DNA of 44,711 bases, counting the filler, from Jimgerdemannia flammicorona (taxonomy: Eukaryota): assembly GCA_003990765.1 (NCBI GenBank). It is 2 parts of 2 records of this genome, joined end to end, with 100 filler letters (N's around TTAATTAATTAA, not from the genome) between each part and the next. Parts side by side here need not be neighbours in the genome. Positions count along the whole stretch, not along the records: positions 1 to 22,309 come from RBNJ01001306.1; 1 more part is not named here. One strand, written 5' to 3'. This document shows positions 1 through 26,183 of the stretch, in pieces; positions within the stretch are counted from its first letter, which is position 1; each line of letters begins with the position of its first letter. The translations under genes and the position numbers were made by a program. The notes under the pieces are model-generated. The model was not told the DNA's origin. It saw only the letters and a list, made by a program, of their open reading frames with translations, and did not search any database.

Positions 1-1777
1 CTATTCACTGAACTCCTTGCACTACACCCAGCAAGTCAAGATGAAGAAGGTCTTATTGAAGCCTTCTTTACTCTTCTCAACAAGAGTTTTGTCAGCTCCA
101 CAAATCCGAGTGACCTAGGACAACCAGCAGCAGTCTTTCTAGCCTTAGTTCCTCACAAAGTCCAAGCCTCTGTAGCCAAGTGGCTCAACTCTACTGACTT
201 CCACTGTACCAGGACCAAGACCACATTATACTACCAATTCCAGAACAGCAAGGCCCACCATATTCTTAAAGAAGAAGCAAGAGAAACCCTTCATCAACTA
301 CCTGACCCTGAATCTGAAGCAGGCCCTACTACAGCCCTACCTGAATCTGAAACCAATACCAAACCTGAACTTGACCTTGAATTAAGTCCATCTGAAATCA
401 AATATATAACTGATTCTGTCTACTTTGATGCCGAGCAAACCCAATTACATGGGGACCAAACTGAAGAAAAGGAGGAGTATCTCAGTGAATTCAATCCCAG
501 ATATACCACCAAAGGAGAAGTACCTCTATCAGGACAGAATACACCTATACAGCAACAAACAGTTATCTATCAAGCCCTCACTCCAGACCTATAACTACTA
601 CTTCAGCAACTTACACAGACCCAAAAAACCCCATCACACTCTGCACCAGTACCTCAAGTAGTATTAGTAACACTACTACCAGCAGTCCAATTACCTCCAG
701 TAAACAATATGGCGAACCAATAGATTCTAGACCTCACAGCCCAGATAGCCATAATGGCAGCAACCATTACTGCCTTAGCTGAACAGACCTGACCTACCAA
801 AAATCTGAGCCTACCTACCTTCAATAGTACTGCACAAGAAGTCCAAAGCTTTATTAGTGTAGTTGACACCAACTTTGAAGCCAATCAATGGACCAATGAG
901 TGAGTTGCTGACCACGTTCTGACAAACAATCAAGACCACACTCTGGAACAACTCTTTGCTACCACTACAGCCTATGTCTGCTGAGTTGTTACATTCTCCA
1001 AAGACCTGTTGAAGAATAGTGGTGAACCCTTCCTGAAAAACCCCTCAGATGGGATACTTGACCTGCAGTAGTTGCTCAGAATGTAGCAAACAATGCCCCA
1101 GAATATGGAGCCCATCCTGCAGCCCCTGGACTCAAACAACTCATGATTGCCCAATACTACAGTGAAACCATGATCGCTGAATCCCAAGTAAAACTCCACA
1201 ACCTCAAATTTGATGTACATGGCAAAGAAGAATTTGAAACCTTCTGTATGAAACTTGAGTCACTCCTGAACACTGTTGGTCTAGGATACATTGCCAATGA
1301 TGAAGCACAAAATGGTACAAGAGCAGACTACTTATTTGATGCCCTGCCTGAATGGCTTACTAGAAAAATCTGAGAACAAGGCCATCCAGTTGGTTGTGAC
1401 CACCAACAATAGTACCTGGCAAGAATCAAGACTATGGTCAAGTGAATCCTAACAGCTGGACTAATTCTGCCCTGAAGACAATTCAACAACAAGAAAAGAC
1501 TTGGACCAAGAAAGAAGAACCCAAGTATGAAGCATCTCAAGCTCCCTCTACATCCACCTCTTGGACACCTAGAAATCATGAACCCACCCAGCCAAGTATC
1601 TTCAAGAAACTCACTGAAGGTGAAAGAAATGAACTTTGAAGAAGTAGAGTATGCTTCTATTGCCGAAAGACAGGACACATGGCCAGTGCCTGCCCTAACC
1701 AAAAACCCCGAACAGCAATATGAGCAACTATTACCACTCTGCACCACCTCAACAACCTAACCACCAGAACACTGGAC
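1..1777 (+). pseudogene. gag: Gag (long, disrupted) with CX2CX4HX4C zinc knuckle
   Basis: Frame 1 reads protein-like from base 1 to about 1140 with sparse stops, then frameshifts. CFYCRKTGHMASAC at 1652-1693 is in the same frame as the downstream dUTPase and pol. Confidence 0.8.
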
Positions 1778-2182
1778 TTTGTTAAGTTAAGACAAACTGC
1801 TAAGGCCCCAACCAAAGGAAGTCAGAAAGCAGCTGAATATGACCTGTATGTAGCCGAAGAAGCTACAGTTTCCAACTGAGAAGTCAAACAAATCTACACA
1901 GGAATCAGTATCCAAATCCCTGAAGGACATGTTGGAAGAATATGCTGTTGCAGCAGCCTAGTATTGAAAGAACTCTCAGTAGAAGGAGGAGTCATTGACG
2001 AGAATTACACAGGCAAAATTATTGTCCTCATCTGAAACCACAGTTGGACACCCTTCAAGATCCCTATTGGTTTCTGCATTGCCCAGATCCTATTCAAAAA
2101 AATCGAGTCAACCCTGATAGTCAAGGAAGTCCCTGAACTACTGCCCACCATCTGAGGATTCAAAGGATTTGGCTCATCAAAC
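1778..2182 (+). pseudogene. dut: Trimeric dUTPase domain, disrupted
   Basis: Manual translation: FVKLRQTAKAPTKGSQKAAEYDL (motif 1), GRICCCSSL (motif 2), GGVIDENYTG (motif 3), CIAQIL (motif 4), *GFKGFGSS (motif 5). Missing Arg residues appear as TGC/TGA, i.e. CpG decay. Confidence 0.92.
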
Positions 2183-2281
2183 AAGGCCCTAGCCCAACCT
2201 ACCATAAGTAAAGAAGAACAATTCTATAAGAAGATCGAAGATGGATATATACCAAGTGGCTGATGCCCTCATGGAATTGGA

Positions 2282-5200
2282 ATGTACTCTTCCCGAATGA
2301 TTGATGATTGCTTCTCTTGTGTCAATGAACTGGCACAAAGAAGAACCAATAGAAGAAAAGCTCCTACAACTGAAATCACCACTATTGGATCAGACAAACT
2401 GCTCACACTTAAGGCTTTTATCAACCGAGCACCTGTCAAGATTATGATAGACAGTGGTGTCTCAGGCAACTTCATCAATGAAGAGACAGCCAACAGACTT
2501 AAGGTCTTCACCTCTCCAGTACAGCAAACTTAAGCAGTTGCTACAGCTGATGAAACCTCACATGTTATTAGTAAAGAAGTCCGCAATCTACCCTTCTAAA
2601 TTGGCAACTACCGAGTACATGTTACCCTCCAAATTGTACCACTTTCTGACAATGAAATCATCCTTGGAACTCTATGGTTAAAACAAGAGAACTCTATGAT
2701 CGATTGGGTAAACCATTCTCTGACCATCAAGAAAGGATGCCACAACTTCAAACTGCAAGCCAAAAAGGACCCACTTAATTCTGGTGACCCTAGACCAAAG
2801 ATCACCCATATCAACAAGCTACAACTTAAGAAATTGGCCAAGAAATTCCCTCTCTTTGCCATCTCCATCTGCCCATCCAAAGGAGAACCTGAGAACTCTG
2901 AAGAAGATTTTTCCAAAGTTGACAGCCATGTCAGACCACTACTCCAGAAATTTCAAGACATATTCCCAAAGAAACCCCCGAAAGGCCTACCTCCTAAACG
3001 AGTGGTAGACCATGCTATCAAGACTATCCCAGATACCAAACCAGCCTTCAAGTCAATCTACCATATGTCTCTGAGAGAAATTGATGTACTTAAGAAAGAA
3101 ATTGACAAACTCCTAGAACAAGAATTCATCAGACCCAGTGTATCACCCTATAGCACACTGGTCCTCTTTATTGTCAAAAAAGGAGGAGACCTGTAAATGT
3201 GCATTGACTACTGTGATCTCAATGAACAGACCATCAAGAACTATTGCCCACTACTGAGGATTGATGAAATATTCGATAGACTTACCAACTCACAATTCAT
3301 GAGCTCTTTTGACCTGTGAAATGGCTATTGGCAAATTGCTATGAAAGAAGAAGACATCTACAAGACAGCTTTCCGAACTCGCTATGGACACTTCGAGTTC
3401 CTGGTTATGCCCTTTGGCTTAACTAATGCTCCAGCAACCTTCCAGACACTGATAAATACCATTCTGCATCCATACCTGGACAAATTCATTGTTGTCTACA
3501 TTGATGACATCCTAGTCTTCAGCAAAACCCTGGAGGAACATCTTGAACACCTTGAACTAGTACTACTGAAACTCCGAGAAAACTGACTCTTTGCAAAACT
3601 CAATAAGTGCAAATTTCTCCTGAAAGAAATTCAATTCCTTGGACACATTGTTACTCCAAATGGAATCAAAGTAGACCCCAGCAAAATCTCCGCAATCAAG
3701 GATTGGCCCAGACCCAAGAAGCTGAAAGACCTCTAGTTATTCCTGGGATTAGCAAACTATTACAGATAATTTATTACCAACTTTGCTAAAATTGCTACTG
3801 CTCTCACCCAAATGACCAAGTATAGCAAGAAACAAGAACAACTCTGGACCATAAAACAAGAGAAAGACTTCAACAATCTTGTAACTTAGGGACCTGAGCA
3901 AGATACCACCTTTCAAGCACTAAAGGATGCCCTGATAACCACTCCAGTACTTCAAGTGGCAAACCCTGCACTGCCATATAAAGTTACCACTGATGCCTCT
4001 GACCTAGCCCTTGGAGCAGTACTCATGCAAGAAGGACACCCTGTGGCCTATCACTCTCGTAAGTTCAATGATGCTGAAATTAACTACACAACCCATGAGA
4101 AGGAAATGCTAGCCATCATAGATACTCTGATCAAATGGTGACCCTACCTAGAAGGAGTATACTTCACTATATTGACTAACCACAAATCATTAGTCAATAT
4201 CAAGACACAGGCTACTCTATCTCAAAAGCAAGCCAGATGGATGAAAGTCCTCACCAACTTTGACTATGAAATCCAGTACTGCCCTGGCAAGGAAAATATT
4301 ATTGCTGATACAATCTCCAGACCACCAATCGAAGAGGTTATCCAAACTCTCATCTTGGTTACAAACTCCATCATGGAACAAATTATCATAGCATATGCTG
4401 ATGTAAGGAAGCTCAAGCACTGTGAGAAATCCTGAATAGTGACAATACCAACAAGCATACACAGTATCATCAATACTAACTAAAGGACAACACTATCTAC
4501 TACAAAGACAGACTATATGTCCCAAACAACTGAGACCTCCAAAGGACTATCCTATTCAAATGTCATGATGTCCCTACAGCTGGACATTTAGGATTCGATA
4601 AATGTTACAAAGTTATCTCCTGAAACTTCTATTGACTCCACATAGCAGATCAGCTCAAAACCTACATCACTTCCTGTGATGCCTGCTAACGAAATAAGTC
4701 CTCAACACTAGCAAAACCCAGCTTACTTCACCCTATCCCAGTACTATCTGCGAATTGGGAACAAATCTCTATGGACTTCATTGTACAACTACTCTGAACC
4801 AAGAATGGGAAAGATGCAATTGTTGTCTTTGTGGACTATCTCAGTAAACAAGCCCACTTTGTGCCTACTACCACTACTGCAACAGTACCAAACATAGCCA
4901 CACTCTTGTTTGACAACATCTTCTGCTATCATGGTCTCCCCAAGATCATCATTAGTAACCAAGACCCAAAATTTACCAGCTATTTTTGAAAAGCCCTCTA
5001 TATACACCTTGGAAAAAAACTTGCACTATCCACAGCCTTTCACCCAGAAACTGATAGCCAAACTGAAAGGATGAACCAAACTCTGGAACAAATGCTAAGG
5101 AACTATGTTTCCTACAGACAAGATGACTGGCATGAATACCTCACTACAGTTGAGTTTGCCTATAACAATAGCAAGCAAGCCTCTCTCAGAATGACCCCAT

Positions 5201-5837
5201 TCTTTACCAATACTGGACAAAACCCAAACACCTCTTTGACACTTATCTGAACCACTGAAGAACCCTCCACAGTTGAAGCTGTTGAAGAATTCTACTTCAA
5301 ATGCACAACTTAAGCCAGATTGCCATTGAGAATTTATCACAAGCTCAAGAACAACAGTCACAGTATATTAACCAACACTGCCAAGAAGAAACCTTTGATA
5401 TTGGAGAAAAAGTTCTACTGGACATCAGAGGATACCGAGTTGACAACCTCAAGCACAGACCATCTACAAAGCTGAACAGCAAGTTTATTGGACCATTTAA
5501 AGTCATTGCATAAGTCTCTCTAACCTCCTACAAATTAGCACTACTGGACACCATTAAGATTCACCCAGTCTTTAATGTTCAATGTCTCAAGTGATACAAT
5601 GAGAATAATGATGAGCTATTTCCAAACCAGACCACCAAACCACCTGCACCTATCATTATTAATGATCAAGAAGAGTATGAAGTTGAACAAATCCTCAACA
5701 AACATGGCAACAAGAGCCACCCTGAGTACCTTGTCAAATGGAAAGGTTACCCAATCCATGATGCAACCTGGGAACCCAAGACCAACCTCCAGAATGCTAC
5801 CAACCTAGTTCAGGAATATGATTCCTTGAATAACTAG
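2282..5837 (+). pseudogene. pol: Pol: aspartic protease, RT, RNase H, integrase, chromodomain
   Basis: IMIDSGVSGNF (PR, about 2450); [28 protein letters not shown] and VYIDDIL (RT); TTDASDLALGAVL (RH); HDVPTAGHLG, SMDFIV, HPETDSQTERMN (IN); EYEVEQIL...YLVKWKGYPIHDATWEP (chromodomain); stop at 5835-5837. Confidence 0.96.
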
Positions 5838-6035
5838 AACCAAATACTCTGCACCTATCCATACTTACTATATACTATCCTCCCGAACATTATAATTATT
5901 GTAAACCAGACCAAGAACTCAGCAAAACAAGACAAGAATACTGACCCTCTGGAAAAATGGCAAAACTAAAAGCAAGCCTATTCTTCCTGTACCACTGAAC
6001 AAAATTAGAAGACCCCAATGAGGATGTCGAAAGCT

Positions 6036-6048
6036 AAGAAGGGAAGAG
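6036..6048 (+). other. Polypurine tract of family A
   Basis: AAGAAGGGAAGAG one base before the LTR start TGTAAG; conserved in the inverted copy at 15499-15511. Confidence 0.85.
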
Positions 6049-6202
6049 TTGTAAGTGCACAATCTCCAAGCCACCGAAATTACATGTCACCCTCTGAACA
6101 AGCCACTGAAATCACATGTGACCTCTGAACAAATCTGGAAATCACCTGCTTGATCATGAAGCTGAGTCAAACCAAAGTTACAGCACACAAAGCTGAGTCA
6201 AT

Positions 6203-7435
6203 ATGAAGTCACAGAACACAAAATTTACACAAACGGAATCTTACCAATCAGGATCAAATGCATATATACTGAGCACCAAGATGCGTCGAATCAGAGAACC
6301 AAAACAAATAACAACTATAACTTCCAAACACACAAACATGACTATCAAGATCTATACCTGTATCTATACTGACATTTGGAATGCCATTATCAACTGAGCC
6401 ACACCCCCTATGCCCCTCATGAATATCCATAGCCTAGCACCCCTCTACTTCGTGAAAGCCTGATGGAATGCTCTGAACATGCTTAGCGAGACCTACCGAA
6501 TCAGACAAATCTCAAGCTACTACCAGATCGGCTGCCTTCTAGAAGACATGATCGAACACTACTATGATACAGACATCACCCAGATGTCTCAACACCAGAA
6601 GCTCATTGCCCGCAAACATCGAGAACTCTTCTACAAGTATAGTACCATTATTCCCCACCTCTGAGTTACCACAGCCGAAATGTTTGCTACTCTGTCCTAT
6701 GGCCAAATCGATGACATGATACAAGAACTTAACCACAAGTACCTCGAGTATATCGAAACCACAGACAGAACCTTCCCACACCCCAATGATCATATCCTGC
6801 AAATGCCCCAAGTTGGATATGCTATGAAGGATATCTATGATATAATCTACTTCGATAAAGACAAAGCAGAAGACAATGATCCCTCTGATGCCAATATGAC
6901 CTCTAGTCAAGGATCTCTGCCAACTCTGATCACACCGCCAACTTTGCTGATAAACTTACAACAATTCATAACAGCATATGAGACTTATTGGGACAATGAC
7001 CACTGGCACGAATACCAACCTGCATTCACTCCCGATTACTTCAACTACAACCAAGAGACCGGAGAACATGACCTGTACCTCCAGACAACCCTTGAGATTG
7101 AACCAACCACTCCACCACCTGAGTATGAGTGACATGAACCACAGCCACTAGCTTACTACAACCCCATGACTCATAGTACTATAACCCACAGAAGGTATGC
7201 AGACAGTGGATCTGATGAAAGTGAAGATGATACACCTCTCCTTCATCCACCAATACCTTACCCAGCATATGAGATGAATGATACCATCTTGTGGGATGGA
7301 GATAAAGTTCCAATGTATTATTACCTCAGCAAACAAGGAGAAGTAATCCGTGAATCACTCTTCCTAGATGACTACTTCATCAGAGATAATGCAATCAATA
7401 GTGATGTCATCGAAGACTACCCAGATAGTGCCTAA
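6203..7435 (+). pseudogene. LTR-internal ORF, unknown protein (predicted helical N-half, acidic C-half)
   Basis: Track ORFs 6203-6397, 6479-6664, 6680-7132 and 7166-7435 share one frame. The four internal stops (6395, 6461, 6662, 7130) are all TGA, compatible with CGA decay. Terminal TAA at 7433-7435; alternative ATG at 6338. Confidence 0.8.
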
Positions 7436-7624
7436 ACCTATAAATAGCCTAGCAGTCATAGTATAGTTAGATTAGCCTTGTACGATGTGACTGTGAACTG
7501 ACTCAGCAGTTAGATGATCTCTTAATATGTCAGATCACACTTGTACTATATGACTACATTCCGACTCAGCAAGATACTTAGTGCTACATCCATATTCAGC
7601 ATAGTCCAGATAGCCCCTCACTAG

Positions 7625-7632
7625 TATAAATA
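7625..7632 (+). promoter_or_regulatory. Putative LTR TATA box
   Basis: TATAAATA followed by a pyrimidine-rich tract, conserved in the inverted LTR copy near 13848-13855; AATAAA about 120 nt downstream. Confidence 0.6.
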
Positions 7633-8112
7633 CTCCCTCTCCCAGATCTCAGAATCTCAGACTCAGATACACAAGAACATTCCTGAAAACTTCTCTACAA
7701 TATCCCTTCATACAACTACTCCTAGCATAGCAATACCATGAATAGCGAATAAACCTATTTAATAATCCACAAACCACTCTTAAGTAAATCTACTCCCTGT
7801 TAGGTCTCACTTCTAACTCTATCACGAAATTTCTTAATTGGGTATTGTCTGCAGCAATACATCAATTCAACTAAGCTGGTATTAGTTTCTTGAACTTTCT
7901 GAAATATGGAAATTCCTAAACATCTAGAACTAGTCCGAAAAAGGACTTTGGTTGAGACGTCAACCTGATCTTGAAATCAATAAGCATAGAGGATGTACTC
8001 CATACGAAATTGATCTTAACCATAAGAAAATGGTCTTCCAGAATACCCAGAATATCCAGAAAACCTTTCTAGAACTATGTAATGGTTATCTTAAAAAAGT
8101 AACCCTCTTACA

Positions 8113-10083
8113 TATACTGGGTCAGGGGGATCTGGGGCTTTCAGCTGGCAGAATGTGGGGAGGGGTTACAGTCTGGAGATGGGGGCCTTTGGAGGGTCAA
8201 AGGGCAGCAAGGGCTCTGGAGGAGGTCCAGTGTCAGGCGGTAATGGGGGGAGAACTGGCCCCTCAAGCTTTGCAGACAAGGTGAAGGGAAGTGGATGGCC
8301 AGCTGAAGATAGGGCTGGTGCTGCTGTGGGGAAGAGCAAGGCAAGCCTTGAGAGGAGGAGAGGCTCTCAGGCTGGGGGTATGAGTATAGGGTCTGGAGAT
8401 ATTGTGGCTGAGGGTGGGACTGCTGATAGAGGTGTGACGGAAAATCAGAAAAAAAAAGGAAATGTGATGGCTGATGGTGGAGTGGGGCAGGGGCTACTGA
8501 TTCAGAAGGGGGACCTGGCTGATAGTGTAATGGGGCTGATGGTGGCACCATTACTCAAGAAGTCAGTTTCGGAGTTCATGGCTACCTTGTGCTTTTGGGG
8601 CTTGGCAGTGATGGCAAGAATGGTCCTGGGGCTTATCTTGCAGCAGGTGGCTGAGGCAGCCTTGATGAGGTTTCTGAAGGGGCTAGAAGGGGTGGAGGTG
8701 GGCTTTGAGAAAGCAGGCCCACTGGAGGAGACAATGAAGACTGGAGTAGTGGTTGGTAAAGTGGTGATCCCTATAGTGTGCTGCCTTAGGTGAGACCCCA
8801 GAGTAGTATAGCTACTAGTTAAAGGGGTCTCTATGGTGATGAAGGTTGAGACTAGGAGGAGGGTAGAGGAGGTGGTGGTGGAGTATAGTGACATGGTGGA
8901 TATCAGATTCCAGGTATGGGAGGGGACGGCGATCAGGACAAATAATGTGGATGTCAGGATTAGGCTGGCAGGGAGGGAGGCCACTGGAAAGATGAATGAC
9001 TGGCCTTCAGTGCTGATATGGAGAGCTGTTATCTGTAGGATATCAAGGATAAAGGAGAGTGAAGAGGAGGAGGAGGACTTGTTGGAGGTGCTGGAAGAGT
9101 TGAGTAGTGCAGTGGAATGGAGAGCAAAGGCCTGAAAGCTCTTTGAAGAGATGATGCATCTGGAGGTAGTGAAAGGGAAGCATATCTGCATAAATAAGAA
9201 GCAGTGGAAGCAGGCGCAGGGATGAAGGAGGCAGAGGGAGCTATTGGTGAGTATGAAAGTAGAGGTGAAGAAGAAGGCGGATGGGGCCAAGGTGTCTGGG
9301 GGTGTCAAAGCCAGTGTCTGAGCTAGTAAAGGAGGAGGAGAGGTAGAGGCAGACAAGGCCAGAGCTGGGAAGGTGCTGAGCAAGAACCCCTATACTGATG
9401 GTACTTTCAAGGTCTGAGAGCAGGAATTGGAGGCCACCCCCCCTCTTATCAGGAGGGGCCTGGCTGTGAAGAGAAGGATAGCAGAGGATATATGGATGTA
9501 GGGGGCCCAGTGAGTGTACTTTAGGGTCTCTGATATGGCAGAAGGGGGCTAGGTGGTGGTGGTTGGTGAGGATGAGCTGGTGGATATCCCTGAGAAGGAG
9601 TGGGATGAGGCTGCCAGTGTAGGTGCTGACACCATGATGTTGGATGCAGGATGGCCAGGGACTCTGAGAGGGAAGGAGGTGGGGAACTTGCTGTGGATGA
9701 GCAAGGTGATGGATAACCTTATGGCTAAGGCATTGAGAGAGGTGGACCTGCAGGTAATGCCTGAAGAGCATTGGGCGCAGATTCTGTATAGAGATGGAGT
9801 GGTGGAAGCTCTAAGGGCAGAGATTCTTGTGATCTTTCTGGAGGAGGAGGGATACAAGATCAATAAGATGAGGAAGGCAGAGCTGGGGGTGGTCACGGGT
9901 GAGCAGGCAGCCTACTGTTGGACTGAGCATCATGGTTTGCAGCTCTGGAGGGAGGCCTGCCTAGAGTATCGTGAGGACTTTGAGGAGAGAGAGGATGGGG
10001 TGATGGTAGAACTTCTGGGAGGGTTGGAGGCACAGGAAGCTGGGGAAAGGGAACTAGCTGCTGAACATGACTTAGACTTGTAG
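8113..10083 (+). pseudogene. LINE ORF1, disrupted
   Basis: Same-family segments 8155-8793, 8833-9135 and 9553-10083, homologous to ORF1 of the other three copies. Confidence 0.85.
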
Positions 10084-10114
10084 AGGATGGAATCGCTATT
10101 TAATATTATTCCTT

Positions 10115-13100
10115 ATAAACAGTACAACTAACATTTTCTCTTTGAATGTGAATGGGTTGAGAGGACCTGGGCAGTGTAAGAACATTTTTACTTGGCTCAA
10201 GAGATTGAAGGCTGATCTCTTTTTACTGCAGGATGTTCGGTATGAGAATGAGGATGATTGAGTGGAGTAGACTAGGGAATGGGGTGGGGCTACTGCTTAG
10301 TTTGGTAAAGTGGCGATTCTAGTGAGGAAGGGTAGAAGAGATTTGGAGAGAATCAGGAGCTGGAGTGATTGCTTGGTCTGGGGAGATTGGCAGCAGCCAG
10401 AGTGGGAGTCAGTGAGAGTTAGCTCTTGCTACTGCCCTGCAGTTAGGGGTAAAAGGACTGTATGGATTGAGGAGCTGCTGGAGGAGAGTATTCTCTTAGA
10501 GAAAGGGGTGGATGTTCTTGGTGGGGACTTTAATATGGTTTGAGATCAGCAGCTAGACAGAACTGATGGAGGGAGGAGTGCAGGGGGGAGAAGTGGAGGT
10601 CTGGATGCATAGGAGGAGGTGGAGAAGTTGAGCTCCTTAGGGGATATGGGCAGAAGATATTGGGGCAATACCAGGGTCTACACACACTGGCTGAATGGCT
10701 TGGGTATGAGGATTGACTGGATTCTGATGGCAGAGTGTTAGGGTTCTGATGTTTGGAAGATACTGGAGGTGGAGTAGTGCCCATAATCTGATCACTGGGG
10801 ACTATTGGAGCAGGGGCAGTTTGGGGGGAGTGGAGATGGACCCAGACATTGGTGCCTTAACTCCTCCCTGCTGGCTGAGAAGGGGTTGTGTGATTCATGA
10901 ATGAAGGACATTCAGGAGAAGGTTTTTATTTAGAGGCATGAGGGTTTGGCTGTAGATGTCCATTGGATAAGATTGAAAGAGGTGGTGATGGTATATTGGG
11001 GAGAAGCTGATAGAGAGACTGGGAGGTGGAGGAGAGAGTACACAAGATGTGCTTTCAGAAGGCTGAGGAGACTGCAAATGGATTGGGTGGATTTGCTTAC
11101 TTATGATGGGGTGGAGAATTGGAGGATAGAACAGGCCAAATTGGAGATAGTGGAACTGCAACAGGTGTTGAGAGAAGAGGAGGAGACTCATATGTGTGGA
11201 ATGGCTGCTAGGCTATAGTGGCAGGGGCTTGAGGAGGGTGAGTGTCCTACTAGATACTTATCAAGACTTCTCAAAGCCAGGAGGGTGTGACATCAGTGAG
11301 ATAGAATCTTAGATGCTGATGGAGCCATGGTGCATGATATACAACAAATCTTGGAGGTTTTGAAAGTGAGATAGCAGGGTTTGTAGAGTGAGGGAGAAGG
11401 AGGTGCTGATAGGGCAGTGATTGCTGATACACTAGGGGAGTGGGGGCCACCGCAAGTAGCTGGACTGGGTGACTTGGTCTTACCAGTGCAAGGAGAGGAG
11501 ATTCAGAGTATCCTTGCAGCAACTAAGCTTGAAACAGCACCAGGGGAGGATGGGTTACCATGAGACTTCTGGAAGAAGATAATCAAGGTCCCCAGTATTT
11601 TGGATGAGATAACTACTCTCTGTAACTATGTTCTTCAGAGTGGTGAGTGGGTTGGAGAGCAGAACCTCAGGCTGGTGGCCTTATTGTATAAAGACAATGG
11701 GAGGAGGGAAGACTGGAAGAATTGGAGACCGATCATGCTTCTGGATATAGACAGGAAGATGGTGACTAAGGTGATTATCACAAGGCTGCAGAAAGTTGCC
11801 CATCAGGTGCTAGGGGAGGAGTAGCAGGGCTTTGTTGGGGGCAGACTTATAAGGGATGAGACTGCATGGGTGCATGGTGTTATTGAAGGGGCCTGGGCTT
11901 GTAGACTGGATGGCAGGTTAGTCTTTCTGGACTAGAAGAAGGCCTATGACTGTGTTTGGCGGGTCTGGCTGGGTAAGGTATTGGATCAGATTGGTATTCC
12001 CCCAAGATTTTGGGCTTCTATGTTGAATCTGCTAGAGAGCAGTAGGGCAGCACTGATGTGTAATGGCCACTGAGGTTTGGCATTCTCCTTGGGTAGAGGA
12101 GTTCCTCAGGGGGACCCTCTGTCTCCTATTCTTTATGATCTTTCATTGGAGCCATTGATGGATAGGATTTGCTGGAAGGTGGTAGGGCTCTCTATGTATG
12201 GGATAGTGTGGAAGATGGGGGCCTTTGCTGATGACATAGTGGTTGGACTTGAGTCTGTGGCAGATGTTGAGGCACTTAAGAAGACAGTAGAATGATATGA
12301 GGCTCACTTAGGGGCGAAGCTCAACTGGTATAAGTGTGAGACAATGGTGCTTAGAAATGGACTAGTGGGTGGAGACATCATTGGAACAATTGTCCCTACT
12401 AGTGAGACAGTGCAGTATCTGGATATCTTCCTTTCTATATATGGTTCTGTCTTGCCACGAGTATGGTGGGAGAGCAGGGTGACTACTTGGGGGGAGGTCC
12501 TTTGAAGTTGGGGAGGCTGTCATATATCTCTGGCAGAGTAGGTGACAATTCTGAATATTTACTGGTTTCCCAAGCTGTGATACATGGCCTATCACCTAGA
12601 CTTTCCAGCTTGGGTGGTGAAGAGACTGACGAAGATGGTAAGAGATTGGATTTGGGCAGGGAGGAGATCTCAGATCAGTTGGGATACTCTTGCAACACCA
12701 GTGGTCAGAGGAGGTCTTGGCCTTGTGGATTTCCCTAAGAGGTTGTACTGCTTGCGAGTCTGATGGTTGAAGAGAGATGCTGAACTGCAGAGAGGAGGGT
12801 GGGTGCCACAGCTACAGAAGGTGTGGGAGATGAGATTCTTCCCTCAAGGATCCTCTGGAGATCTGCTCTCTTTAGTGGAGCTGAATAGAACTCAGCAGCT
12901 ACAGTTTAAGGGTTTTTGGTGGAGGGTGGTAGAAGGAGCACACCACATTGGTCTGTGCTAGCAAGGCAATAAGAGGGAGGTGGTGTGGGGGCCTGATATG
13001 TGGCGATGGGATAGACTGCTCCTGGGGGGTGCTCTGCTTGATATATTTAATTTTGAGGATGGAGTGGAGTGTCAGCAAGGTCATGGCCAGAATCTTTGGC

Positions 13101-13711
13101 CAAGTGGCTGGCAGGTGGCAGGGATTGGTGAGGAGTGGGACTGGGTAGGTATCTGGTCTTGGAGTGCTGAGGTGTGGAGGTGGCTTCCTCCCAAGTTCTG
13201 GGTAGTATGGTGGTAAATACTATGGAGGAATATTATGTTAAATTTTCATGCTGGGCATCTGGTGGATGGTGGCCATTATGATTGTGAGGAGTGTTACAAT
13301 GTAGGGCAAGTTGGGGGACTTGTGCAGACACCAAAACATTGGCTGAGAGAGTGTGAGATTTTGGGGGACTTTTGGATAGTAATAGAGAATAGACTGGGTA
13401 TGGGGCAGAGGCCGGTGGGTGAGAGAGGCTGCTGGGAGGACTTGAGATCTTGGCAGTATAGATGGAACTGGCAGGACATTGGCTTTTTGTATTTGAGGAG
13501 GGGTGGCAGATGGGACTACAGGAGAAGGTTTCATGGTGAGAGGAACTGTTGGGGGATCTGTTGACTAGATGGTAGGTGGGTTGGGGTCCTCAGGGTGGGT
13601 GACATTGTGGTTTGGTGGCAAGGATCTATGAGCAGAGTGGAGGGAGGGTAGTGATTGTGTTAGACAAAGTGGTCTTTCATCAAGAAGGGGTAGGAGGGGG
13701 GGCCCCCCTAG
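10115..13711 (+). pseudogene. LINE ORF2 (EN-RT-CCHC), disrupted; end approximate
   Basis: NIFSLNVNGL, DLFLLQDV, GGDFN, IDWIL, SDH (EN); NWRPIMLLDID, QGDPLSP, FADD (RT); CEEC...HWLREC. Confidence 0.92.
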
Positions 13712-13789
13712 GGGGATCAGATAGGAGGAGGGTTCACTGTATTTATATGGGATAGATAGATATAATAAGGAAGGGAGTCCAAGTAACTA

Positions 13790-13840
<51 letters not shown>

Positions 13841-13843
<3 letters not shown>

Positions 13844-14010
13844 AGAGTATTTATACTAATAAGAGGCTATCTAAACTATGCTAAATATAGATATAACACT
13901 CAGTACCTTGCTGAGTCAGAATTCAGTCACATAGTACAAGTGTAATAAGAGATTGTCTGACTACTGAGTCAGTTCACAGTTATATTATACAAGACTAATC
14001 TAACTATAAC

Positions 14011-14042
<32 letters not shown>

Positions 14043-15497
14043 TGTTTTACAGACTCAAAGTTATACAGATTTTTATTGGAAGGGAATCTAGACTATATAG
14101 GCCAAAACTCTCCTCTACCATACATCAAGTACTGCTCTCTTATTAAAATCTAACTATATTAATGACTACTAAGCTATCTATAAATTTAGATGCTATCTGG
14201 ATAGTCTTCAATGATATCACTATCAATGACATCATCTCAAATGAAGTAGTTATTTAGAAAGAGTAGTTCTCAGATTACTTCTCTCTATTTACTAAGATAA
14301 TAATATATTAAAACTTTGTTACCATCCTATAAGATAGTATCATTGGTCTTATATATTGGATAAGGAGTTAGTGGATAAAGGAGGGGTACATCATCTTCAC
14401 TTTTATCAGATTCACTGTCTGTATATCTTCTATAAATAACAGCACTATGAGTTATAGGGTTATAGTATATAGCTCATTTCATTCATACTTAAGAGGTGGA
14501 GTTATTGATTTAATCTTGAGGGTTATCTGTAGATATAGGTTGTATTCTCTAGTCTCTTTATTATGGTTGAAGTAATTGAGAGTAAATATAGATTGATACT
14601 CATATCAGTAGTCATTATCTCAATAGGTCTTGTAAGTGGTTATGAACTATTATAAGTTTATTAGTAAGATTGGTAGAGTGATCAAGGTTAGCAGAGATCC
14701 TTGGCTTAAGGTTATATTAGTATCAGAGAGATCATTATCTTCTGCTTTGTTATCATCAAACCAGATTATATTATAGATGTCCTTCATAGTATATCTAACT
14801 TGGAGTATTTGCAAAATGTGATCATTGGGGTATAGAAAGGTTTTGTCTGTGGTTTAAATATACTCAATATACTTGTGGTTGAGTTCTTATACCATATCAT
14901 CAATTTGGCCATAAGACAGAGTAGCAACTATTTCAGTGATAGTAACTTAGAGGTAGAGAATAAAGGTGCTATACTTGTAAAAGAGTTCTTAGTATTTATG
15001 AGCAATAAGTTTCTAGTATTAAGATATCTGGGTAATATCTATATCATAGTAGTGTTTGACTATATCTTCTAGGAGGCAGCTGATCTAATAGTAGTTTGAT
15101 ATTTGTCTAATACAATGGGTTTCACTAAGTATATTCAGAGTATTCCACAGACTTCTATGAAGTAGAGATATATCAGACTATAGATATTTATGAGGGTAGA
15201 GAAAGTGTGGCTTGATTGATAATAGTATTCCAAATATCAGTACAGATGCAGTTATAGATCTCAGTAATCATGGTTATATATATATTTAAGAGTTATAGTT
15301 ATTTGTTATAGTTTTCTGTTTCAATACATCTGTATATTCAGTATATATACATTTGATCCTAATTGGTAAGATTCTGTTTGTATAAATCTTGTATTCTATG
15401 ACTTTAAGTTGACTTAGCTTTATAATCTTATATGTGATTTTCAGATTTGTTCAGAGGTAACATGTGATTTCAGTGACTTGGAGATTATATGCTTACA
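13841..15497 (-). repeat. Older, AT-shifted inverted copy of the family-A LTR including the internal ORF, truncated at the LINE poly(A)
   Basis: Reverse complement aligns with 6050-7640; preceded on the minus strand by the PPT and 3' UTR sequence matching about 6000-6049. Confidence 0.92.
14009..14146 (-). mobile_element. Short poly(A)-tailed retro-insertion with 12-bp TSD
   Basis: T-run at about 14014-14038; AATCTAACTATA duplicated at 13997-14008 and 14147-14158; single copy at the equivalent site of the 6050 LTR. Confidence 0.85.
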
Positions 15498-15665
15498 ACT
15501 CTCTCCTTCTTAGCTTTCGACATCCTCATTGAGGTCTTCTAATTTTAGTCTAGTGTTGTTATACTATTTGGATAATCAAAAGTCTGGTAAAGTCCATTTT
15601 TCTCAGAAAGTAGCATACTTATAGTATAGTTTCCTAATATATTGAATTCATATATTAAAGGATCA

Positions 15666-15697
15666 TGTAAGAGGGTTACTTGTTAAGATAACCATTA
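15666..15697 (-). repeat. LTR-terminus fragment, inverted match to about 8080-8112
   Basis: TGTAAGAGGGTTACTTGTTAAGATAACCATTA versus reverse complement TGTAAGAGGGTTACTTTTTTAAGATAACCATTA. Confidence 0.75.
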
Positions 15698-17465
15698 TAC
15701 CTTTCTGACACTTATCTTTCTTCAGTACCATTCAGATTATATAATCTTTGGAAAGTACTTACAACATTGTTTTTTAGAGAAAAGAGACTAGCAATATAGT
15801 GACCAACAGACAATCTGAGGTGTGTACAGGGCAGGGTGGCCTGAGTGTATTCAACTGGCAGTATGTGGAGAGAGGTCCTGGCCTGAGGGGTAGTATGAGG
15901 GGGCTGCTGGCAGGAGGATGTAAAAGAGGAGGAGGTAGTGGTGAAGGACAGAGGTCTGGGAGAGCAAGCTTTGTAGAGATAGTAAAGAGGAGACAGCAGG
16001 TATCTGGGCTGGAGAGGTGGCTGAGAAAAGGTAAGAAGATAGGGAAGATAGCAGTATATGAGGGAGTAGCCCTTGGTGGTAGGAGCAGTAGAACTGGGGA
16101 TAGAGTGGCTGAGGTGAGCATAATGACTGATGGTGATGGGACTACTAATCTGGAAAAAAATCCAGATATGACTGTTAATAGTATGGCTGAGCAGCTGGGG
16201 CTTGGAAGGCAGGGAAATTTGGCAGATAGTATTATGGGCCTGGTGGTGGCCCCATTGCTCAAAAAATCAATCTTGGTATTTATAGTTACACTGTGCTTCT
16301 GAGGCCTAGTGGTGATGGTGAAAATGGTACTAGGGCTTATCACTAAGCAGGTAGCTAGAGTAGCATCAGTAAAGTTTCTGAAGAGATTGGAGGGTATGGA
16401 GGTGGGCTTTGAGGAGAATGGACCTTTGGAGGAGGTACTGAAGGCTGGATTGATGGTTAGGGAGATGTGTGTTCCAATGGCATGGTGCCTGAGATGGGAT
16501 CCCAGAGTGGTACAACTGCTGGTGAAAGAGATGCTCATGGTGATAATAGTGGAGATAAGAAGGAGAGTTGAGGAGGTCATGGTGGAGTATGGAGAGATGG
16601 TAGATATTAGATTCAGAGTCTAGGAAGGGACCTTGCTCAGAACTGGGAATGTTGATGTAAGGATTTAGCTAGCAGAGAAGGAAGCTACCAGAAAGGCAAG
16701 GAACTAGTCTTTGGTGATGGTCTGGGGGCAATTTTATACAAGATAATAAGGGTGAAGGGGAGTGAGAAGAAGGAAGAGGACTTATTAGAAGTACTGAAAG
16801 AGCTGAGTAGTACTATAGAGCAGCAGGTGCAGGCTTAAAAGACTTTTGTAGAGTCAACATACTTAGAGGTGGTGGATGGAAAGCATATTTGAGTAGACAA
16901 GGGGCAGTGAGAAAGAGCTCAGAGATATATATAAGAGATAGAAAGAGTTACTGACTAAGCTAGAGGGTAGACCACAGAAGGATATAAGAGAAATGGTAGA
17001 GGTGGGGGGTATCAAAGTGAGTGTCTGGGCTGGTGAGAGTGGCAGGAGTACAGGGAAGGAGACAGAGAAGGACAGAGAGGAGACTGGCAATGATCTGTAT
17101 ACAGATGGTATGTTTGAGGTCTGGAAGGAGGCCTGGGAGGACTTGCCTACCCCTACTCCTCTTATTAGATGAGGTCCAGCTTCCCAAAGCAGGGTGGCAG
17201 AGGATGTGCCTATGTAGGGGACCCAGCGAGTGCAATTTAGAGTTCCAGAGGTGGTAAATAGGAGACAAGTGGTGGTGGTTGGAGAGAAGGAACTAGTGGA
17301 TGTCCCAGAGGTGTGGGATGAGTCTGTGAGTGCTGGGGCTGACACTATGATACTGGATGGTAAGAGGCTAGCAACTCCTAGAGGGAAGGAGATGGGAAAC
17401 CTACTTTGGATATATAGGATAATGAATAATCTGACAGCTGAAGAGTTGGGAGAGGTGGATCTAAG
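15698..17465 (+). mobile_element. LINE copy 2, 5' UTR and ORF1 only, cut by the gypsy B LTR
   Basis: ORF1 fragments 15799-16302, 16309-16623 and 17230-17465 homologous to the other copies; 5' UTR shares ACACT.ATCTTTC..CAGTACCATT with copy 3. Confidence 0.9.
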
Positions 17466-17871
17466 TATAATGATTATAGTTTCTAAATGAGGAAATGACT
17501 AGTTCTGGGGGTTTTAAGTAGCTTGAAGAGATACTTAAGGATTCAAGTATTCTCAAAGGATTTCTAGGAGAAAAAATATTCTGAGACTTTATTCATAAGA
17601 ACAAAGGAGATATTTATACAAGATCTGAAAGAAGAATCCAGAAGGATCTGAAAAATCAAAGAAAAATGCTAAGAGAAAAGTTCTTGGCAAAGATGACAAA
17701 TGATGACAAATAAAGTTCTACAAGTTTCCAGGACATTCAGTGACTAGCTAAATAAGTACTAGTGGATACTCAGTACCAAGAAAGAATTTCTAAGTATTCA
17801 GAAAGTACTGGAAGATTGTAGAATATTGAGGAAAGATAAAGAAAAGAAATAAACTATGCTAAAATATTACA
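17466..17871 (-). repeat. 3' LTR of B1 (about 405 bp)
   Basis: Starts TGTAATATTTTAG on the minus strand after the PPT; aligns end to end with 20020-20422. Confidence 0.92.
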
Positions 17872-18182
17872 TCTCCCCCTCTTTAAGAATCAATGTTCTC
17901 ATTGAATTCTCAAAGTTATATATAATAAACAATAAGACTAAAAGAAACTTCAAACAAAATATATCAGCTCATTGGTAAGGACTAGTCATCCTTGTATAAG
18001 GCAATAGCCAAAGTGTCATCTTGATCAAATGAGAACTGGTTTGAATCTTATTGATTATAAGATTTATAGAGTTCTCCTATATCTCTTATTTCTGATACTG
18101 TATTCTTTAGAGTACCCTGATGCTTAATGTGCCTGATCAACAGTATGTCATCTACTATCTAAGGAGAGAACCTCATGGGCAG

Positions 18183-20019
18183 TCAATGAGTTTCTTTTTG
18201 CTCAAACTCTTGAATGAGGTCTTGAGAGTTCTTGAGATTAGTGGCAGGTTTACAGGTAGCATCATATTCAGAGTAATCTATCTACTTGACTAGGTATTCT
18301 GTGCAATGGTACTAGACTTGTTTATCTAAGATTTTCTCAACTTCATACTCAATGTAGTCTTCAACTATCACTGGTGTTGATGGTGTTAGAATTCAGCCAG
18401 AATATGAAGGTAACTGGTTCCAGGTCTTGAGTTATGACAAATAGAATACTGGGTATATATGCATGGTTGTTGGCAAGTTGAGGCAGTAAGATCAGGTGGA
18501 GACTTGCTTAGTGATCTCAAAGGGTCTAAGATACTTGGGCTGGAATTTGACTGACTGGTAGTTGACTTGAGATTGAGCCTTAATGTTGTTGGCTTTAAGT
18601 AGAACCATATTACCAATGTTGTATATGATATCTTACTGCTTCTTATCTGCATACTTAGCTTGATGTTGCTGAGCCTTTTGCAGGTTCATAGTGGTGATCT
18701 TGAGAAGGAAATCCATTTTGTTAATAAGGTTCTGGGCTGTGGGAACTTGTGTGTGACTGGATTGCTGAAATGAGACTAGGCTTACAGAGGTCTTGGGGTT
18801 TTGACTATAAAGTAGCTGAAATGGAGAAAGGCCAGTTGATGATTGGATAGCATTATTATAGGTAAACTCAGTATAGATCAGATAGTAGTCCCAATTATCT
18901 TGCTTATAAGATATATAGTTTCTAAGCATTTGTTCAAGTGTTCTGTTCATTCACTTAGTCTGTCCATTAGTTTGAGAGTGGAAGGCAGTAGACATAGCAA
19001 TTTGGGTTCCAAGGGTCTTGAAGAGTGCTTGCCAGAAGTAGCTTGTGAACTTGGGGTTGTGGTCACTGATAATTACTTGGGGAAGTCCATAATGGCAGAA
19101 GATAGTCTTAAAGAAGATTCTTGCAATTTCTAGGACAGTGATATTAGTTGTGGTTAGCTCGGTGATTGTAATCTTGGTGAGACAGTCTACAAATACAACA
19201 ATAGCATCATAGCCTTTTTTGGTTCATAGAAGTTGCACAATGAAGTCCATTGTGACTTGTTTGAACTTTTTGATTGGAATTAACAAGAGTTGTAGAAGAC
19301 CAGTGAGTACTTGGTTGCTTGACTTGTTTCTTTGGCAAAGATTACAGCTTTGGACATACTTCTTGATTTTCTTGAGTATATTTGGCCAGTAGTAGTCTCA
19401 TTGGATATTCTTGATGGTCTTCTCCATTCTAAGGTAACCAGCTAGTGGGGAGTCATGATGTTCAAGAAGGATCTTATACTGTAGTTCAGAGTTGGCAGAA
19501 ATATATACTTTGTCTTGATAGTATATGAGATTGTCCTTGATGGTGTACTTTTCCTTGAATTCCTTGGTGTTCCTTTGTAGAACCAGAGAGTCTTGTTCAT
19601 ATGCCTTCTTGATCTGATTGAGGAATTCAGGTACCATGGTAACTTGTAAAATTGTGACAAGATCAGGTCTGCTTGAAAGTACATCTGGTACAACTAGAGT
19701 TTTGCCAGACTTGTAGATGATATTTGGAGTAAAGGTCTGAAGTAGTTGACTCCACTTGGCTTATTGGTGAGAAAGGGTTGGTTGAGTGTTGATATACTAA
19801 AGGGACCTGTAATCAGTGATTATCAAACTCAACTCCTTCTAGGTAGTGTCACCAAGTCTTGAGGGCATACATGATTGCCAGGAGTTCCTTTTCATGAGTA
19901 GCCAGCTTTTGTTCTGCTAGGGACAATTTTCTTGACTCAAAGGCAATAGGTCAGTATCCTTGACCATCATCTTGAAAAATGACTGCACCAATGGTAAAAT
20001 TAGATATATCTGTAGTAAC
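18183..20019 (-). pseudogene. pol: Pol fragment (RNase H, integrase, chromodomain)
   Basis: Motifs as listed for B1; many stops. Confidence 0.9.
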
Positions 20020-20422
20020 TATAATATTTTAGTATAGTTTATTTCTTTTCTTTGTCTTTCTTCAATATTCTACAACCTTCTGGTACTTTCTGAATACTTA
20101 GAAACCCTTTCTTGGTGCTGAACATCCTCTAGTACTTATTTAGTTAGTCACTGATTGTCCTGGAAACTTGTAGAACTTTATTTGTCATCATTTGTCATCT
20201 TTGCTGAGAACTTTTCTCTTGACATTTTCCTTTGATTTCTCAGATCCTTCTGGATCCTTCTTTTAGATCTTGTATAAATATCCCCTTTGTTCTCATGAAT
20301 AAAGTCTCAGAATATTTTCTCTCAGAAATCCTTCGAGGATACTTGAATCCTTAGTATCTCTTCGAGCTACTTAGGACCACCAGAATTAGTCACTTCCTCA
20401 TTTAGAAACTAGAACTGTTACA
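20020..20422 (+). repeat. 5' LTR of B2
   Basis: TATAAT (decayed TGTAAT)...GTTACA, followed by the PBS. Confidence 0.92.
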
Positions 20423-20424
20423 CT

Positions 20425-20442
20425 TGGTAGCAGTGGGTGGTT
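20425..20442 (+). other. Primer binding site, initiator tRNA-Met 3' end
   Basis: TGGTAGCAGTGGGTGGTT, 2 nt after the LTR; resembles the complement of eukaryotic tRNA-iMet 3' ends (TGGTAGCAGAGGATGGTT). Confidence 0.85.
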
Positions 20443-20489
20443 ACACCTAGCCTTATCAAGATACCTCTCAAGATATCAGTCATAATACT

Positions 20490-21521
20490 ATGGAGGACAA
20501 TGGGTGGAACCCTTCATACAGTACCTATGGTCCAGACAATGCCTTATACAATCAGTACAATTAGCAAGAAGAAGAGGAACAGCAAAACCCTACTCAGTCG
20601 AATGGAGCCATCAAGAGTCTTTTGTAGACTGCATTAGCTCAGATTGCTCAACTTCAAGAATGCATAGAAAGAAAGGAAAGCAAGGCCCCCGCTCATACCT
20701 CCACACCTCCACTGACATCAATACATCTGACAGCAGTCACTATCAAGCCTCAGAAGCCCAATACTTTTGATGGTCAAAGAGGAGGACTGTCTACTGATAC
20801 CTGGCTTTTTCAATTGGAGCAATATGGAGAACTGACCAATTTGGAAGAAGCAACACTAGTCCAATTTGCCACTACACTTCTCCAAGAGAATGCTATAATC
20901 TGATAGTGAAATCATGTCCAGAATACCAGATTCTTTGGCCAAATCAAGACCTGGGGTGAATTCTCTGATGCTATTCAAGGCCAATTCAAACCAGTCAATA
21001 GCACTAAGGCCGCATGAGACTGTTTGACAAATGTCAAACAACCCAAGTCTGTACAATCATACAATGCATAATTCCTGTCAATCCTGCTAGAATTACTACA
21101 TGTCACTGAAGACAAGAAGGTTGACAAGTACATCTGAGGCCTGAAAGGTCAAACCCGAGTTTGTGTTGAACTAGAAGAACCCAAGGACCTAGATACAGCA
21201 ATGAAAATTGCTAATAGGTTTGATATCATCACCTATGGTCACCACTTTGAACAGAAGAGACCACCTTTCAACAACAACAACCACAGAAGGGAGAAACCCA
21301 AAGTCAGAACTGTTGGACCTGCCCCCATGGACTTAGACACTATCGACAAGAACAAGAAAGGCAAACTTACACCTGAGGAAACGGAGTGCCTCAAGAAGAC
21401 TGGAGCCTGCTTCTTTTGCCATCAGCCTGGTCACATTGCAACCAAATGTCCCAAGAAAACTGCTGAACCAAAGAGGATTCTGATCCTGTCCAAACACACT
21501 CAAGGTCAACCAGTTGAATAA
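20490..21521 (+). pseudogene. gag: Gag with zinc knuckle
   Basis: ATG at 20490; KPQKPNTFDG..DTWLFQLEQY, GPAPMDLD, CFFCHQPGHIATKC (21408-21449). Confidence 0.9.
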
Positions 21522-21536
21522 GAAGTTGTACTCAAT

Positions 21537-21937
21537 TTCATGTAAGTCAACCTCAAGGCCCAGATCCCTCAAGTACAGTCAGAAGGAGCCATTGGTTTAG
21601 ACCTTCAAGCAGTACAACAAGTCATATTCTGGCATATGAAAGAAGGCTCATTCCAACTGGCCTCTCAGTCGAAATCTCCAAGGAACATTATGCAAGAATT
21701 GCACTAAGATCTGGCCTCAGTTTCAAGCACTCATTGGATGTTGGTACTGGAGTCATCGACTCTGACTTCTGAGGTAAAATGCAAGTCCTGCTAGTCAACC
21801 ACAAGAACCAACCATATACCATCAATGAAGGAGACAGAATTGCACAGCTCATTCTGGAGTGAGCTACTCTACCAGTCATCAAAGAAGTCACCAAGCTGTC
21901 TTCCACCAAGCAAGATCAGAAAGACTTTGGCAGCACT
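21537..21937 (+). pseudogene. dut: Trimeric dUTPase domain, disrupted (one frameshift)
   Basis: GAIGLDL, RIALRSGLS, GVIDSDF*G, GDRIAQLIL, KDFGST. Confidence 0.92.
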
Positions 21938-21976
21938 GATAAAGTTGTAAGTATAGCTGAGAACTGAGCCAATTCA

Positions 21977-22409: not shown

Positions 22410-22499
22410 TTTTTTTTAATTGTCACTTGGACTGCCCTTTATTACCGAAGTCTATAGTATTAATATGTAATACAATGTCACTCTCCCCCTCAACCAATG

Positions 22500-26152: not shown

Positions 26153-26183
26153 ATTGAAAGAATGTTGAATTGTCGACCCCAAC

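Follow-up and report, generated by a model that had tools for sequence, protein, structure and literature searches.

A decayed accessory gene of a dUTPase-bearing chromovirus family in Jimgerdemannia flammicorona, probably carried in U3 of an unusually long LTR

The window analysed here is a stretch of 44,711 nucleotides from Jimgerdemannia flammicorona (assembly GCA_003990765.1), of which positions 1 to 22,309 come from RBNJ01001306.1; all coordinates count along the window. It begins inside a degraded chromovirus, here called A1, and a long interrupted open frame lies downstream of the A1 pol region. The features on which the discussion depends are the following, with orientation given relative to the strand of the window.

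1..5808, plus strand: degraded gag-pol of chromovirus A1, traced by Pfam in stop-masked frames and running off the 5' edge of the window
6036..6048, plus strand: polypurine tract (PPT) of 13 purines, followed by T and then TGTAAG; the sole purine run of at least 9 nt from the pol stop to 7334
6050..8112, plus strand: proposed 3' LTR of A1, TGTAAG...CTTACA, 2063 nt, its start placed from the PPT and its end lying anywhere from about 7770 to 8112
6067..6222, plus strand: tandem sub-repeats in two pairs, with units of 32 nt (x 2.1) and 31 nt (x 2.1), from Tandem Repeats Finder
6261..6269, plus strand: TATA-like CATATATAC, a candidate gene promoter about 70 nt upstream of the ATG, by motif, kept in the second copy
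6338..7435, plus strand: accessory ORF of 365 codons with four TGA codons (6395, 6461, 6662, 7130) and a TAA end
7625..7632, plus strand: TATAAATA, a candidate LTR promoter for genomic RNA, by motif and as the best local match to the TATA region of family C
7748..7753, plus strand: AATAAA, a candidate poly(A) signal, by motif
8080..8112, plus strand: 33-mer ending in CTTACA, which may be the LTR's U5 end or, inverted, the 5' tip of the non-LTR element B1
13840..15546, minus strand: a second, older copy of the PPT and gene, matching 6001-7640 at about 75% identity

The identity of the host element is clear from its Pfam domains, which run along 1-5808 in the order zf-CCHC, dUTPase (1.9e-25), RVP_2, RVT_1 (1.1e-30), RT_RNaseH (2.4e-30), Integrase_H2C2 (1.9e-13), SH3_Tf2-1 and Chromo (1.6e-13), with the dUTPase between the zinc knuckle and the protease. 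This is the PR-RT-RNase H-IN order of a chromovirus pol, and the chromodomain (PF00385, residues 1892-1933 of frame 3, after SH3_Tf2-1) stands at the integrase C-terminus. The best matches to the A1 pol, at 34-57% identity, are amphibian, plant, algal, fungal and arachnid proteins, too scattered to point to a host. The dUTPase, like the CpG- and CpA-biased decay described below, would suit a fungal host but is no proof of one. No Pfam family was found in the gag region (1-1650), and Rfam and tRNA scans of the window gave 0 hits.

The open frame itself extends over 6203-7435, where ORFs at 6203-6397, 6479-6664, 6680-7132 and 7166-7435 share one common frame of 410 codons, interrupted by four internal stops, all of them TGA, and closed by a TAA. 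Its total of five stops compares with 10-35 in the other five frames, and composition-matched shuffles of the same DNA gave 21.4 +/- 4.4 stops, with five or fewer in none of 5000. When the two related proteins described below, P0001 and P0002, were compared with the window by tblastn, each gave a single HSP in frame +2, so that no frameshift is needed to read the frame from end to end. The first-pass annotation had proposed one frame, four stops that are all TGA and no frameshift, and the frame count, the tblastn comparison and the shuffles agree with it on each point. It had also given a length of 365-410 codons, of which the lower figure stands and the upper does not: codons 1-45 (6203-6337) have a noncoding-like dN/dS of 0.74 between the two copies in the window, and P0002 begins at the methionine of codon 46. 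The gene is therefore taken to be 6338-7435, or 365 codons, while 6203-6337 is probably a leader. Codon numbers below continue to count from 6203.

The database searches yielded only two relatives of the ORF protein, each from a contig of about 1 kb. P0001 (247 aa, ENA, on a 998-nt contig; E 6.5e-101) was the sole relative among 494 candidates in the near-length band of 5.8 billion protein clusters, and P0002 (128 aa, a JGI "hypothetical protein" on a 1180-nt contig; E 8.2e-59) was the sole relative among 37 candidates from the shorter proteins of the cluster search. P0002 aligns without gaps to codons 46-173, with 100 of 128 residues identical (78%), starting at the codon-46 methionine and carrying arginine at each of the three N-terminal TGA sites. 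The alignment of P0001 runs over codons 160-409, with 159 of 250 positions identical (64%) and two in-frame gaps of two residues each; the protein starts at a shared methionine, ends at most one residue from the same stop, and carries glutamine at the fourth TGA site. Both proteins are intact and colinear with the window frame, and they overlap, jointly spanning codon 46 to the end of the frame.

Beyond these two, the searches returned little. The cluster of P0001 is a singleton with no name, and a profile search of 1.84 billion representatives, using a profile of the 247 C-terminal positions only, recovered P0001 alone. No named cellular homologue was found among the 5.8 billion clusters or, for the same 247 C-terminal positions, among the 1.84 billion representatives. 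Searches for related DNA loci in viral contigs, in metagenome contigs (with C-terminal and then N-terminal patterns) and in genome contigs gave pattern matches, none of which was confirmed by tblastn.

The protein is strongly acidic, with a pI of 4.44, a net charge of -36, 13% Tyr/Phe/Trp, 8% Pro and two cysteines. Its C-terminal half has a pI of 4.05, a net charge of -29 and 13% Tyr/Phe/Trp, and its likeness to acidic activation or adaptor regions is limited to composition. The N-terminal 175 or so residues are predicted to be helical, and the remainder, rich in Pro, Tyr, Asp and Glu, is predicted to be mostly coil. We found no membrane segment, as the highest 19-residue Kyte-Doolittle mean is 0.9, nor is the N-terminus hydrophobic, in keeping with the earlier suggestion that a protein with neither signal peptide nor transmembrane segment is not env-like.

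Family and fold searches were negative throughout: hmmscan against Pfam-A gave 0 families for the window protein (E<=1) and for P0001 and P0002 (E<=10), a PDB sequence profile search with the ORF protein reached a best E-value of 0.51, no DNA-binding domain was found in the ORF protein, and the protein has no similarity to the open frame upstream of gag (1-591). The Atlas model of P0001 has a pLDDT of 0.39, with all neighbours at a TM-score of 0.30 or below and no usable relative among them. The AlphaFold check that the first-pass annotation had called for on the repaired protein was run and yielded no usable fold, with a pLDDT of 30.7 for the whole protein (from a three-row alignment) and 43.1 for the N-terminal 128 residues. 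By these searches the ORF protein appears to represent an orphan family, to which neither a family nor a fold can be assigned. With two relatives among billions of sequences, any function found for it would be new.

A second copy of the PPT and gene lies on the minus strand at 15546-13840 and is in much worse condition, with a GC content of 0.30, a CpG observed/expected ratio of 0.03, 16 stops, several frameshifts and heavy C>T decay. It has one unit of each of the two sub-repeats, seen as alignment gaps of 32 and 31 nt, and breaks off directly after its TATA box, where the poly(A) tail of B1 interrupts it. Its homology to the first copy begins at 6001, upstream of the PPT, and hence it is not a solo LTR. 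A pol fragment at 18229-19899(-) was considered as a further part of this copy and rejected, since it has its own PPT and a 403-407-nt LTR and belongs to family C, described below.

Decayed as they are, the two copies retain a coding pattern in their differences. By codon position 1, 2 and 3 the copies differ at 22.4%, 11.9% and 32.2% of sites, and the 3>1>2 pattern persists when C>T and G>A differences are set aside (22, 7 and 40 differences). The NG86 estimate of dN/dS between the window gene and the second copy is 0.205 (342 codons used, 23 skipped), against 0.686 and 0.886 in two shifted control frames of the same DNA, and it is even along the gene, at 0.21 for codons 46-159, 0.18 for codons 160-309 and 0.21 for codons 311-409. 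A dN/dS below 1 had been named beforehand as a check on a genome-wide consensus; the value obtained here, from the two decayed copies in the window, is well below 1. The substitution pattern thus indicates that purifying selection acted on the ORF during the active life of the family.

The same comparison accounts for the breaks in the frame. Between the copies, C has changed most often in CpG (0.71), followed by CpA (0.53), CpC (0.35) and CpT (0.12), and at the four TGA sites the second copy reads CAA, TG-, TAA and TGA. Decay of CGA on either strand fits these codons together with the arginines in P0002. The proposal that the stops arose by CpG decay accordingly agrees with both observations, the arginine in P0002 at three of the four TGA sites and the fastest change of C in CpG, and comparison of the sequences points to CpG-type decay, of the CGA>TGA kind, as the source of the TGA breaks. 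With two colinear homologues and a dN/dS of 0.21, the earlier view of this frame as a real protein gene is upheld. We consider it very likely that the gene is both real and element-borne.

Where the gene lies within the element is best approached through a sister chromovirus family in the same window. The pol of this family, C, is 68-70% identical to that of A at the DNA level, and C also has a dUTPase. Its PPT, AAAGAGGGGGAGA, is followed by TGTAAT, which opens an LTR of 403-407 nt at 17871->17463(-); a second LTR at 20020-20422(+) is 90% identical to the first and ends in GTTACA. The LTR is followed by CT, by a PBS-like TGGTAGCAG... (TGGTAGCAGTGGGTGG), presumably matching the 3' end of initiator tRNA-Met, and then by gag. 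Family C therefore has both two LTRs and a PBS within the window. The proposed A1 LTR, at 2063 nt, is five times the 403 nt of the family C LTR.

In A1, the PPT at 6036-6048 is followed by a single T and then by TGTAAG at 6050, an LTR-like TG start directly 3' of the tract that is kept in the second copy and has the same architecture as the junction of PPT and TGTAAT in family C. The gene starts 288 nt after this junction; the sub-repeats between the LTR start and the gene resemble enhancers. The segment 6001-6055 is the best-conserved stretch of the two copies, about 93% identical where they are otherwise about 75% alike, and in the second copy it still keeps a CpG despite that copy's CpG observed/expected ratio of 0.03. 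Such conservation is what one would expect of a cis-acting site. The only other purine run of at least 9 nt between 6049 and 7936 is AAGGAGAAG at 7335-7343, and it is followed by TAATCC. Downstream of the gene, the A1 TATA region scores 39 against the family C LTR, a marginal result beside a null of 29.5 +/- 3.5 and a null maximum of 38 (60 shuffles). The first-pass annotation had the ORF after the PPT and TG start and before the TATA box and AATAAA, and these motifs are indeed where it put them.

The 3' end of the proposed LTR is less well defined. CTTACA at 8107-8112 is the inverted complement of TGTAAG and abuts the start of homology to B1, a copy of a non-LTR retrotransposon, B, with RVT_1 on its G-rich strand. 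The B1 homology begins about 120 nt inside the 5' end of B, and a junction of this kind is expected if a younger A1 inserted into B1. The 33-mer at 8080..8112, of which CTTACA is the end, matches 15697-15665(-) at 94% over 34 nt, and these are its only two occurrences. Both are at the 5' ends of B copies, in opposite orientations; the one at 15697-15665(-) directly adjoins another B copy, whose 5' end is intact, and relative to B it is oriented the other way. The 33-mer could thus be the 5' tip of B itself, inverted at B1, instead of the U5 end of A. The high conservation of the 33-mer nevertheless suits an LTR terminus better than B sequence, since B copies are only about 68% alike. No inverted repeat was found within 7560-8113 above shuffled controls.

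The conserved junction of PPT and TGTAAG, the match to family C and the downstream TATA box and AATAAA support a placement in U3, and on this sequence evidence we think it probable, by a modest margin over even odds, that the gene occupies U3 of an unusually long LTR of about 2 kb. The earlier claim that the gene is inside the LTR is favoured by the one good PPT downstream of pol, which immediately precedes TGTAAG at 6050, is about 93% conserved and is mirrored in family C; it has been made plausible and is not proven. No 5' LTR or solo LTR of family A was seen within the window, which begins inside the element, and neither 5795-6000 nor 7641-8113 has homology above shuffled controls to the sequence upstream of the second copy.

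The arrangement that competes most directly with U3 is a gene that is real but internal, an additional ORF between pol and a short 3' LTR starting after 7435, for example at TGTACG at 7479, which would make the purine tract at 6036 either a relic or an additional PPT, internal to the element. The family C LTR gives this some weight: it is only 403 nt long with about 250 nt before its TATA box, and a U3 of that length would set the LTR start of A1 near 7375-7480, close to the TGTACG at 7479, which could pair with CTTACA at 8112 as well. Internal sequence precedes both copies in the window, neither of which is a 5' or a solo LTR, and additional ORFs of LTR retrotransposons lie mostly between pol and the 3' LTR in the part of PMC7264820 available to us. 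Such an LTR would, however, have no polypurine tract before 7479, as the only candidate, AAGGAGAAG at 7335-7343, leads into TAATCC and not into TG, whereas the 6036 tract with its TGTAAG is the best-conserved element of the two copies and matches the verified PPT/LTR junction of family C. We regard the internal position as rather unlikely.

More improbable, in our judgement, is that the ORF is a captured (transduced) host gene or the passenger of another mobile element, with selection having acted on a host paralogue. Capture is known in LTR retrotransposons, according to the available part of PMC7264820, and P0001 and P0002 might themselves be cellular genes, given that their contigs measure about 1 kb. 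Against this stand two element-borne copies that are 75% alike and have a dN/dS of 0.21 along the whole gene, a value that between element-borne copies means that selection acted on the copies carried by the element over many rounds of replication, as well as the failure to find a named cellular homologue among the 5.8 billion clusters or the 1.84 billion representatives (the latter with the C-terminal 247 positions). As for a chance open frame in A/C-rich, stop-poor noncoding LTR DNA, some stop codons are made less frequent by the low G content of the sense strand, but not one of the 5000 composition-matched shuffles came down to five stops, two intact colinear protein homologues exist, and the 3>1>2 pattern is joined by a dN/dS of 0.21 against 0.69 and 0.89 in the other frames. 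The shuffles, the homologues and the dN/dS together refute it, and we give it a negligible chance. Our preferred reading is that 6338-7435 is a decayed, genuine accessory gene of a dUTPase-bearing chromovirus (Ty3/gypsy) family, most likely in U3, and we would put the probability of that reading as a whole at roughly 0.55.

Reverse transcription copies everything between the PPT and R to both ends of a new insertion. If the PPT at 6036 defines U3 by priming plus-strand synthesis, then the gene is part of U3, copied to both LTRs and retained in solo LTRs. It might be expressed from the 3' part of element transcripts, on a spliced or subgenomic 3' co-terminal RNA, as are the 3' accessory genes of retroviruses. 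Alternatively, it might have its own promoter in U3, made up of the tandem sub-repeats and the TATA-like box about 70 nt before the ATG, with polyadenylation at the AATAAA of the LTR. The protein would presumably act in trans for the element, and its acidic, aromatic-rich tail might recruit host factors, perhaps activating the LTR. A role as a trans-acting regulator or adaptor (an activator) is suggested by amino acid composition and is, we think, doubtful; the anti-silencing or host-modulating function proposed in the first-pass annotation stays conjectural.

Combining these elements, each LTR, solo LTRs included, could be a self-contained cassette of sub-repeats, TATA-like box, 365-codon ORF and its own poly(A) signal, an idea that we put forward tentatively. 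If it were correct, expressible copies of a trans-acting factor would be scattered at insertions and left behind after deletion of the element, and the factor would perhaps activate its own LTR or serve as a counter-silencing adaptor.

Few LTR retrotransposons have accessory genes; most of these genes have no known function, and they have been described in the internal region. The available part of PMC7264820 assigns additional ORFs to the internal region, where they are found most frequently downstream of pol and ahead of the 3' LTR; some are in sense orientation, env-like and with membrane segments, and others are antisense. The available part of PMC2864245 describes fungal chromoviruses that have an "add. 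ORF" without known function and a dUTPase whose position varies, being at the amino end of Pol in PosPlaTy3-3. The A1 ORF is like the aORF-3S of Athila and Bagy2 and like the "add. ORF" of fungal chromoviruses in being an extra sense ORF downstream of pol that is kept across copies, such ORFs being mostly domainless (PMC7264820 and PMC2864245, as far as the available text goes). Unlike the aORF-3S, which in that text are internal and upstream of the PPT, with membrane-spanning env-like members, the A1 ORF is downstream of the only good PPT. Compared with env-like aORF-3S, it has no transmembrane segment or signal peptide, and its position is not internal, provided that the PPT at 6036 functions as the 3' PPT. 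In its dUTPase, A1 is like the chromodomain Ty3/gypsy elements PosPlaTy3 of Postia placenta, those of Phanerochaete chrysosporium and Tmt1 of Tuber; unlike A1 as interpreted here, none of these is mentioned as having an LTR-borne gene in the available part of PMC2864245. The A1 pol is also distant in sequence, with best matches that are only 34-57% identical.

A literature search, judged by title and abstract and not exhaustive, found no retrotransposon ORF within or encoded by an LTR, and to our knowledge a U3-borne protein gene of this kind is undescribed for Metaviridae. If the gene is in U3, then a gene maintained by selection is present twice per element and survives in solo LTRs, which changes how such a gene is expressed, dosed and persists. 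There is also a caution here for annotators, as long "LTRs" may conceal coding sequence.

The closest parallels are retroviral. Pfam includes families for both Sag and Nef, and the search of Pfam-A with the window protein, P0001 and P0002 (0 families) placed none of them in either. The sag gene of MMTV, a vertebrate retrovirus, is a superantigen ORF of about 320-365 codons in the U3 of a betaretroviral LTR, after the PPT and before the TATA box, and it encodes a type II membrane glycoprotein. The A1 protein is unlike Sag in having no hydrophobic segment and matching no Pfam family, and its carrier is a chromovirus without env. Lentiviral nef, a 3' accessory gene, begins before the PPT and overlaps U3; its product is a protein of the adaptor type that carries acidic and proline motifs and whose fold is not apparent from sequence alone. 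The A1 ORF is unlike nef in starting 288 nt after the PPT and, with its 0 Pfam families, in having no sequence similarity to it. The likeness is thus one of arrangement: as in MMTV sag, the A1 gene would lie between the PPT and the LTR TATA box, and so in both LTRs and at the 3' end of the genomic RNA, and as in nef it would be a 3'-terminal accessory gene extending into U3. If the placement in U3 is true, this chromovirus family would provide a Metaviridae counterpart of the retroviral sag/nef arrangement.

Within A1, the copy of the dUTPase-bearing chromovirus (family A) at the start of the window, CpG content is uneven: the observed/expected ratio is 0.41 in the accessory ORF (6203-7435), the open reading frame lying after the polypurine tract, as against 0.12 in gag-pol (1-5810) of the same element copy. 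Either the two regions began with unlike CpG contents or they have decayed at unlike rates. Also in A1, positions 1-594 hold a stop-free frame of 197 codons, open at the window edge, which continues in the same frame, across one stop, into the gag region. This frame has no Pfam match, and no similarity to the accessory ORF was found; it may be a long N-terminal Gag extension or some other extra coding region.

A sister dUTPase chromovirus, family C, occupies 17463-22410 as two copies arranged head to head, including the following parts:

19899->17463, minus strand, family C copy: pol fragment, polypurine tract and 3' LTR
20020-20422, plus strand, family C copy: 5' LTR

The LTRs of this family are 403-407 nt long and 90% identical to each other. 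In the plus-strand copy the 5' LTR is followed by a PBS-like stretch (TGGTAGCAG...) and then by gag, dUTPase and protease, reaching approximately 22400.

Two blocks, 28000-33000 and 40100-44711, are AT-rich (GC 0.21-0.34). No Pfam match was obtained in any of the six frames of 40201-44711. They are densely filled with repeats rich in purines, each roughly 67-335 nt in length (30500-32600), and also include the following array:

44064-44485: 23-nt tandem array

Family B, a non-LTR retrotransposon of about 5.9 kb, has four copies in the window:

8114-13840: family B copy (B1)
15700-17473: family B copy
22410-27784: family B copy
34189-40085: family B copy

The G-rich strand carries RVT_1, the family shows an extreme GC skew of about +/-0.5, and its observed/expected ratio for CpG ranges from 0.01 to 0.26. 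The 3' terminus of B1 is a poly(A) tail some 50 nt long (13790-13840), and the insertion site of B1 lies in copy 2, the second segment bearing the accessory gene, directly past the TATA box of that segment. Copy 2 also contains an insertion of about 150 nt (approximately 14011-14161, minus strand) that terminates in about 25 consecutive A residues and has a direct repeat of roughly 12 nt (TATAGTTAGATT) on both sides; it has the look of a short retroposed element and its target-site duplication.

A 33-mer occurs only twice, at 8080-8112 and 15665-15697 (94% identity over 34 nt), in both cases at the 5' end of a family B copy, with the orientation relative to B opposite between the two sites. 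Two readings are possible: the 33-mer is the tip of U5 in the LTR of family A, or it is the 5' tip of B itself, inverted at one site.
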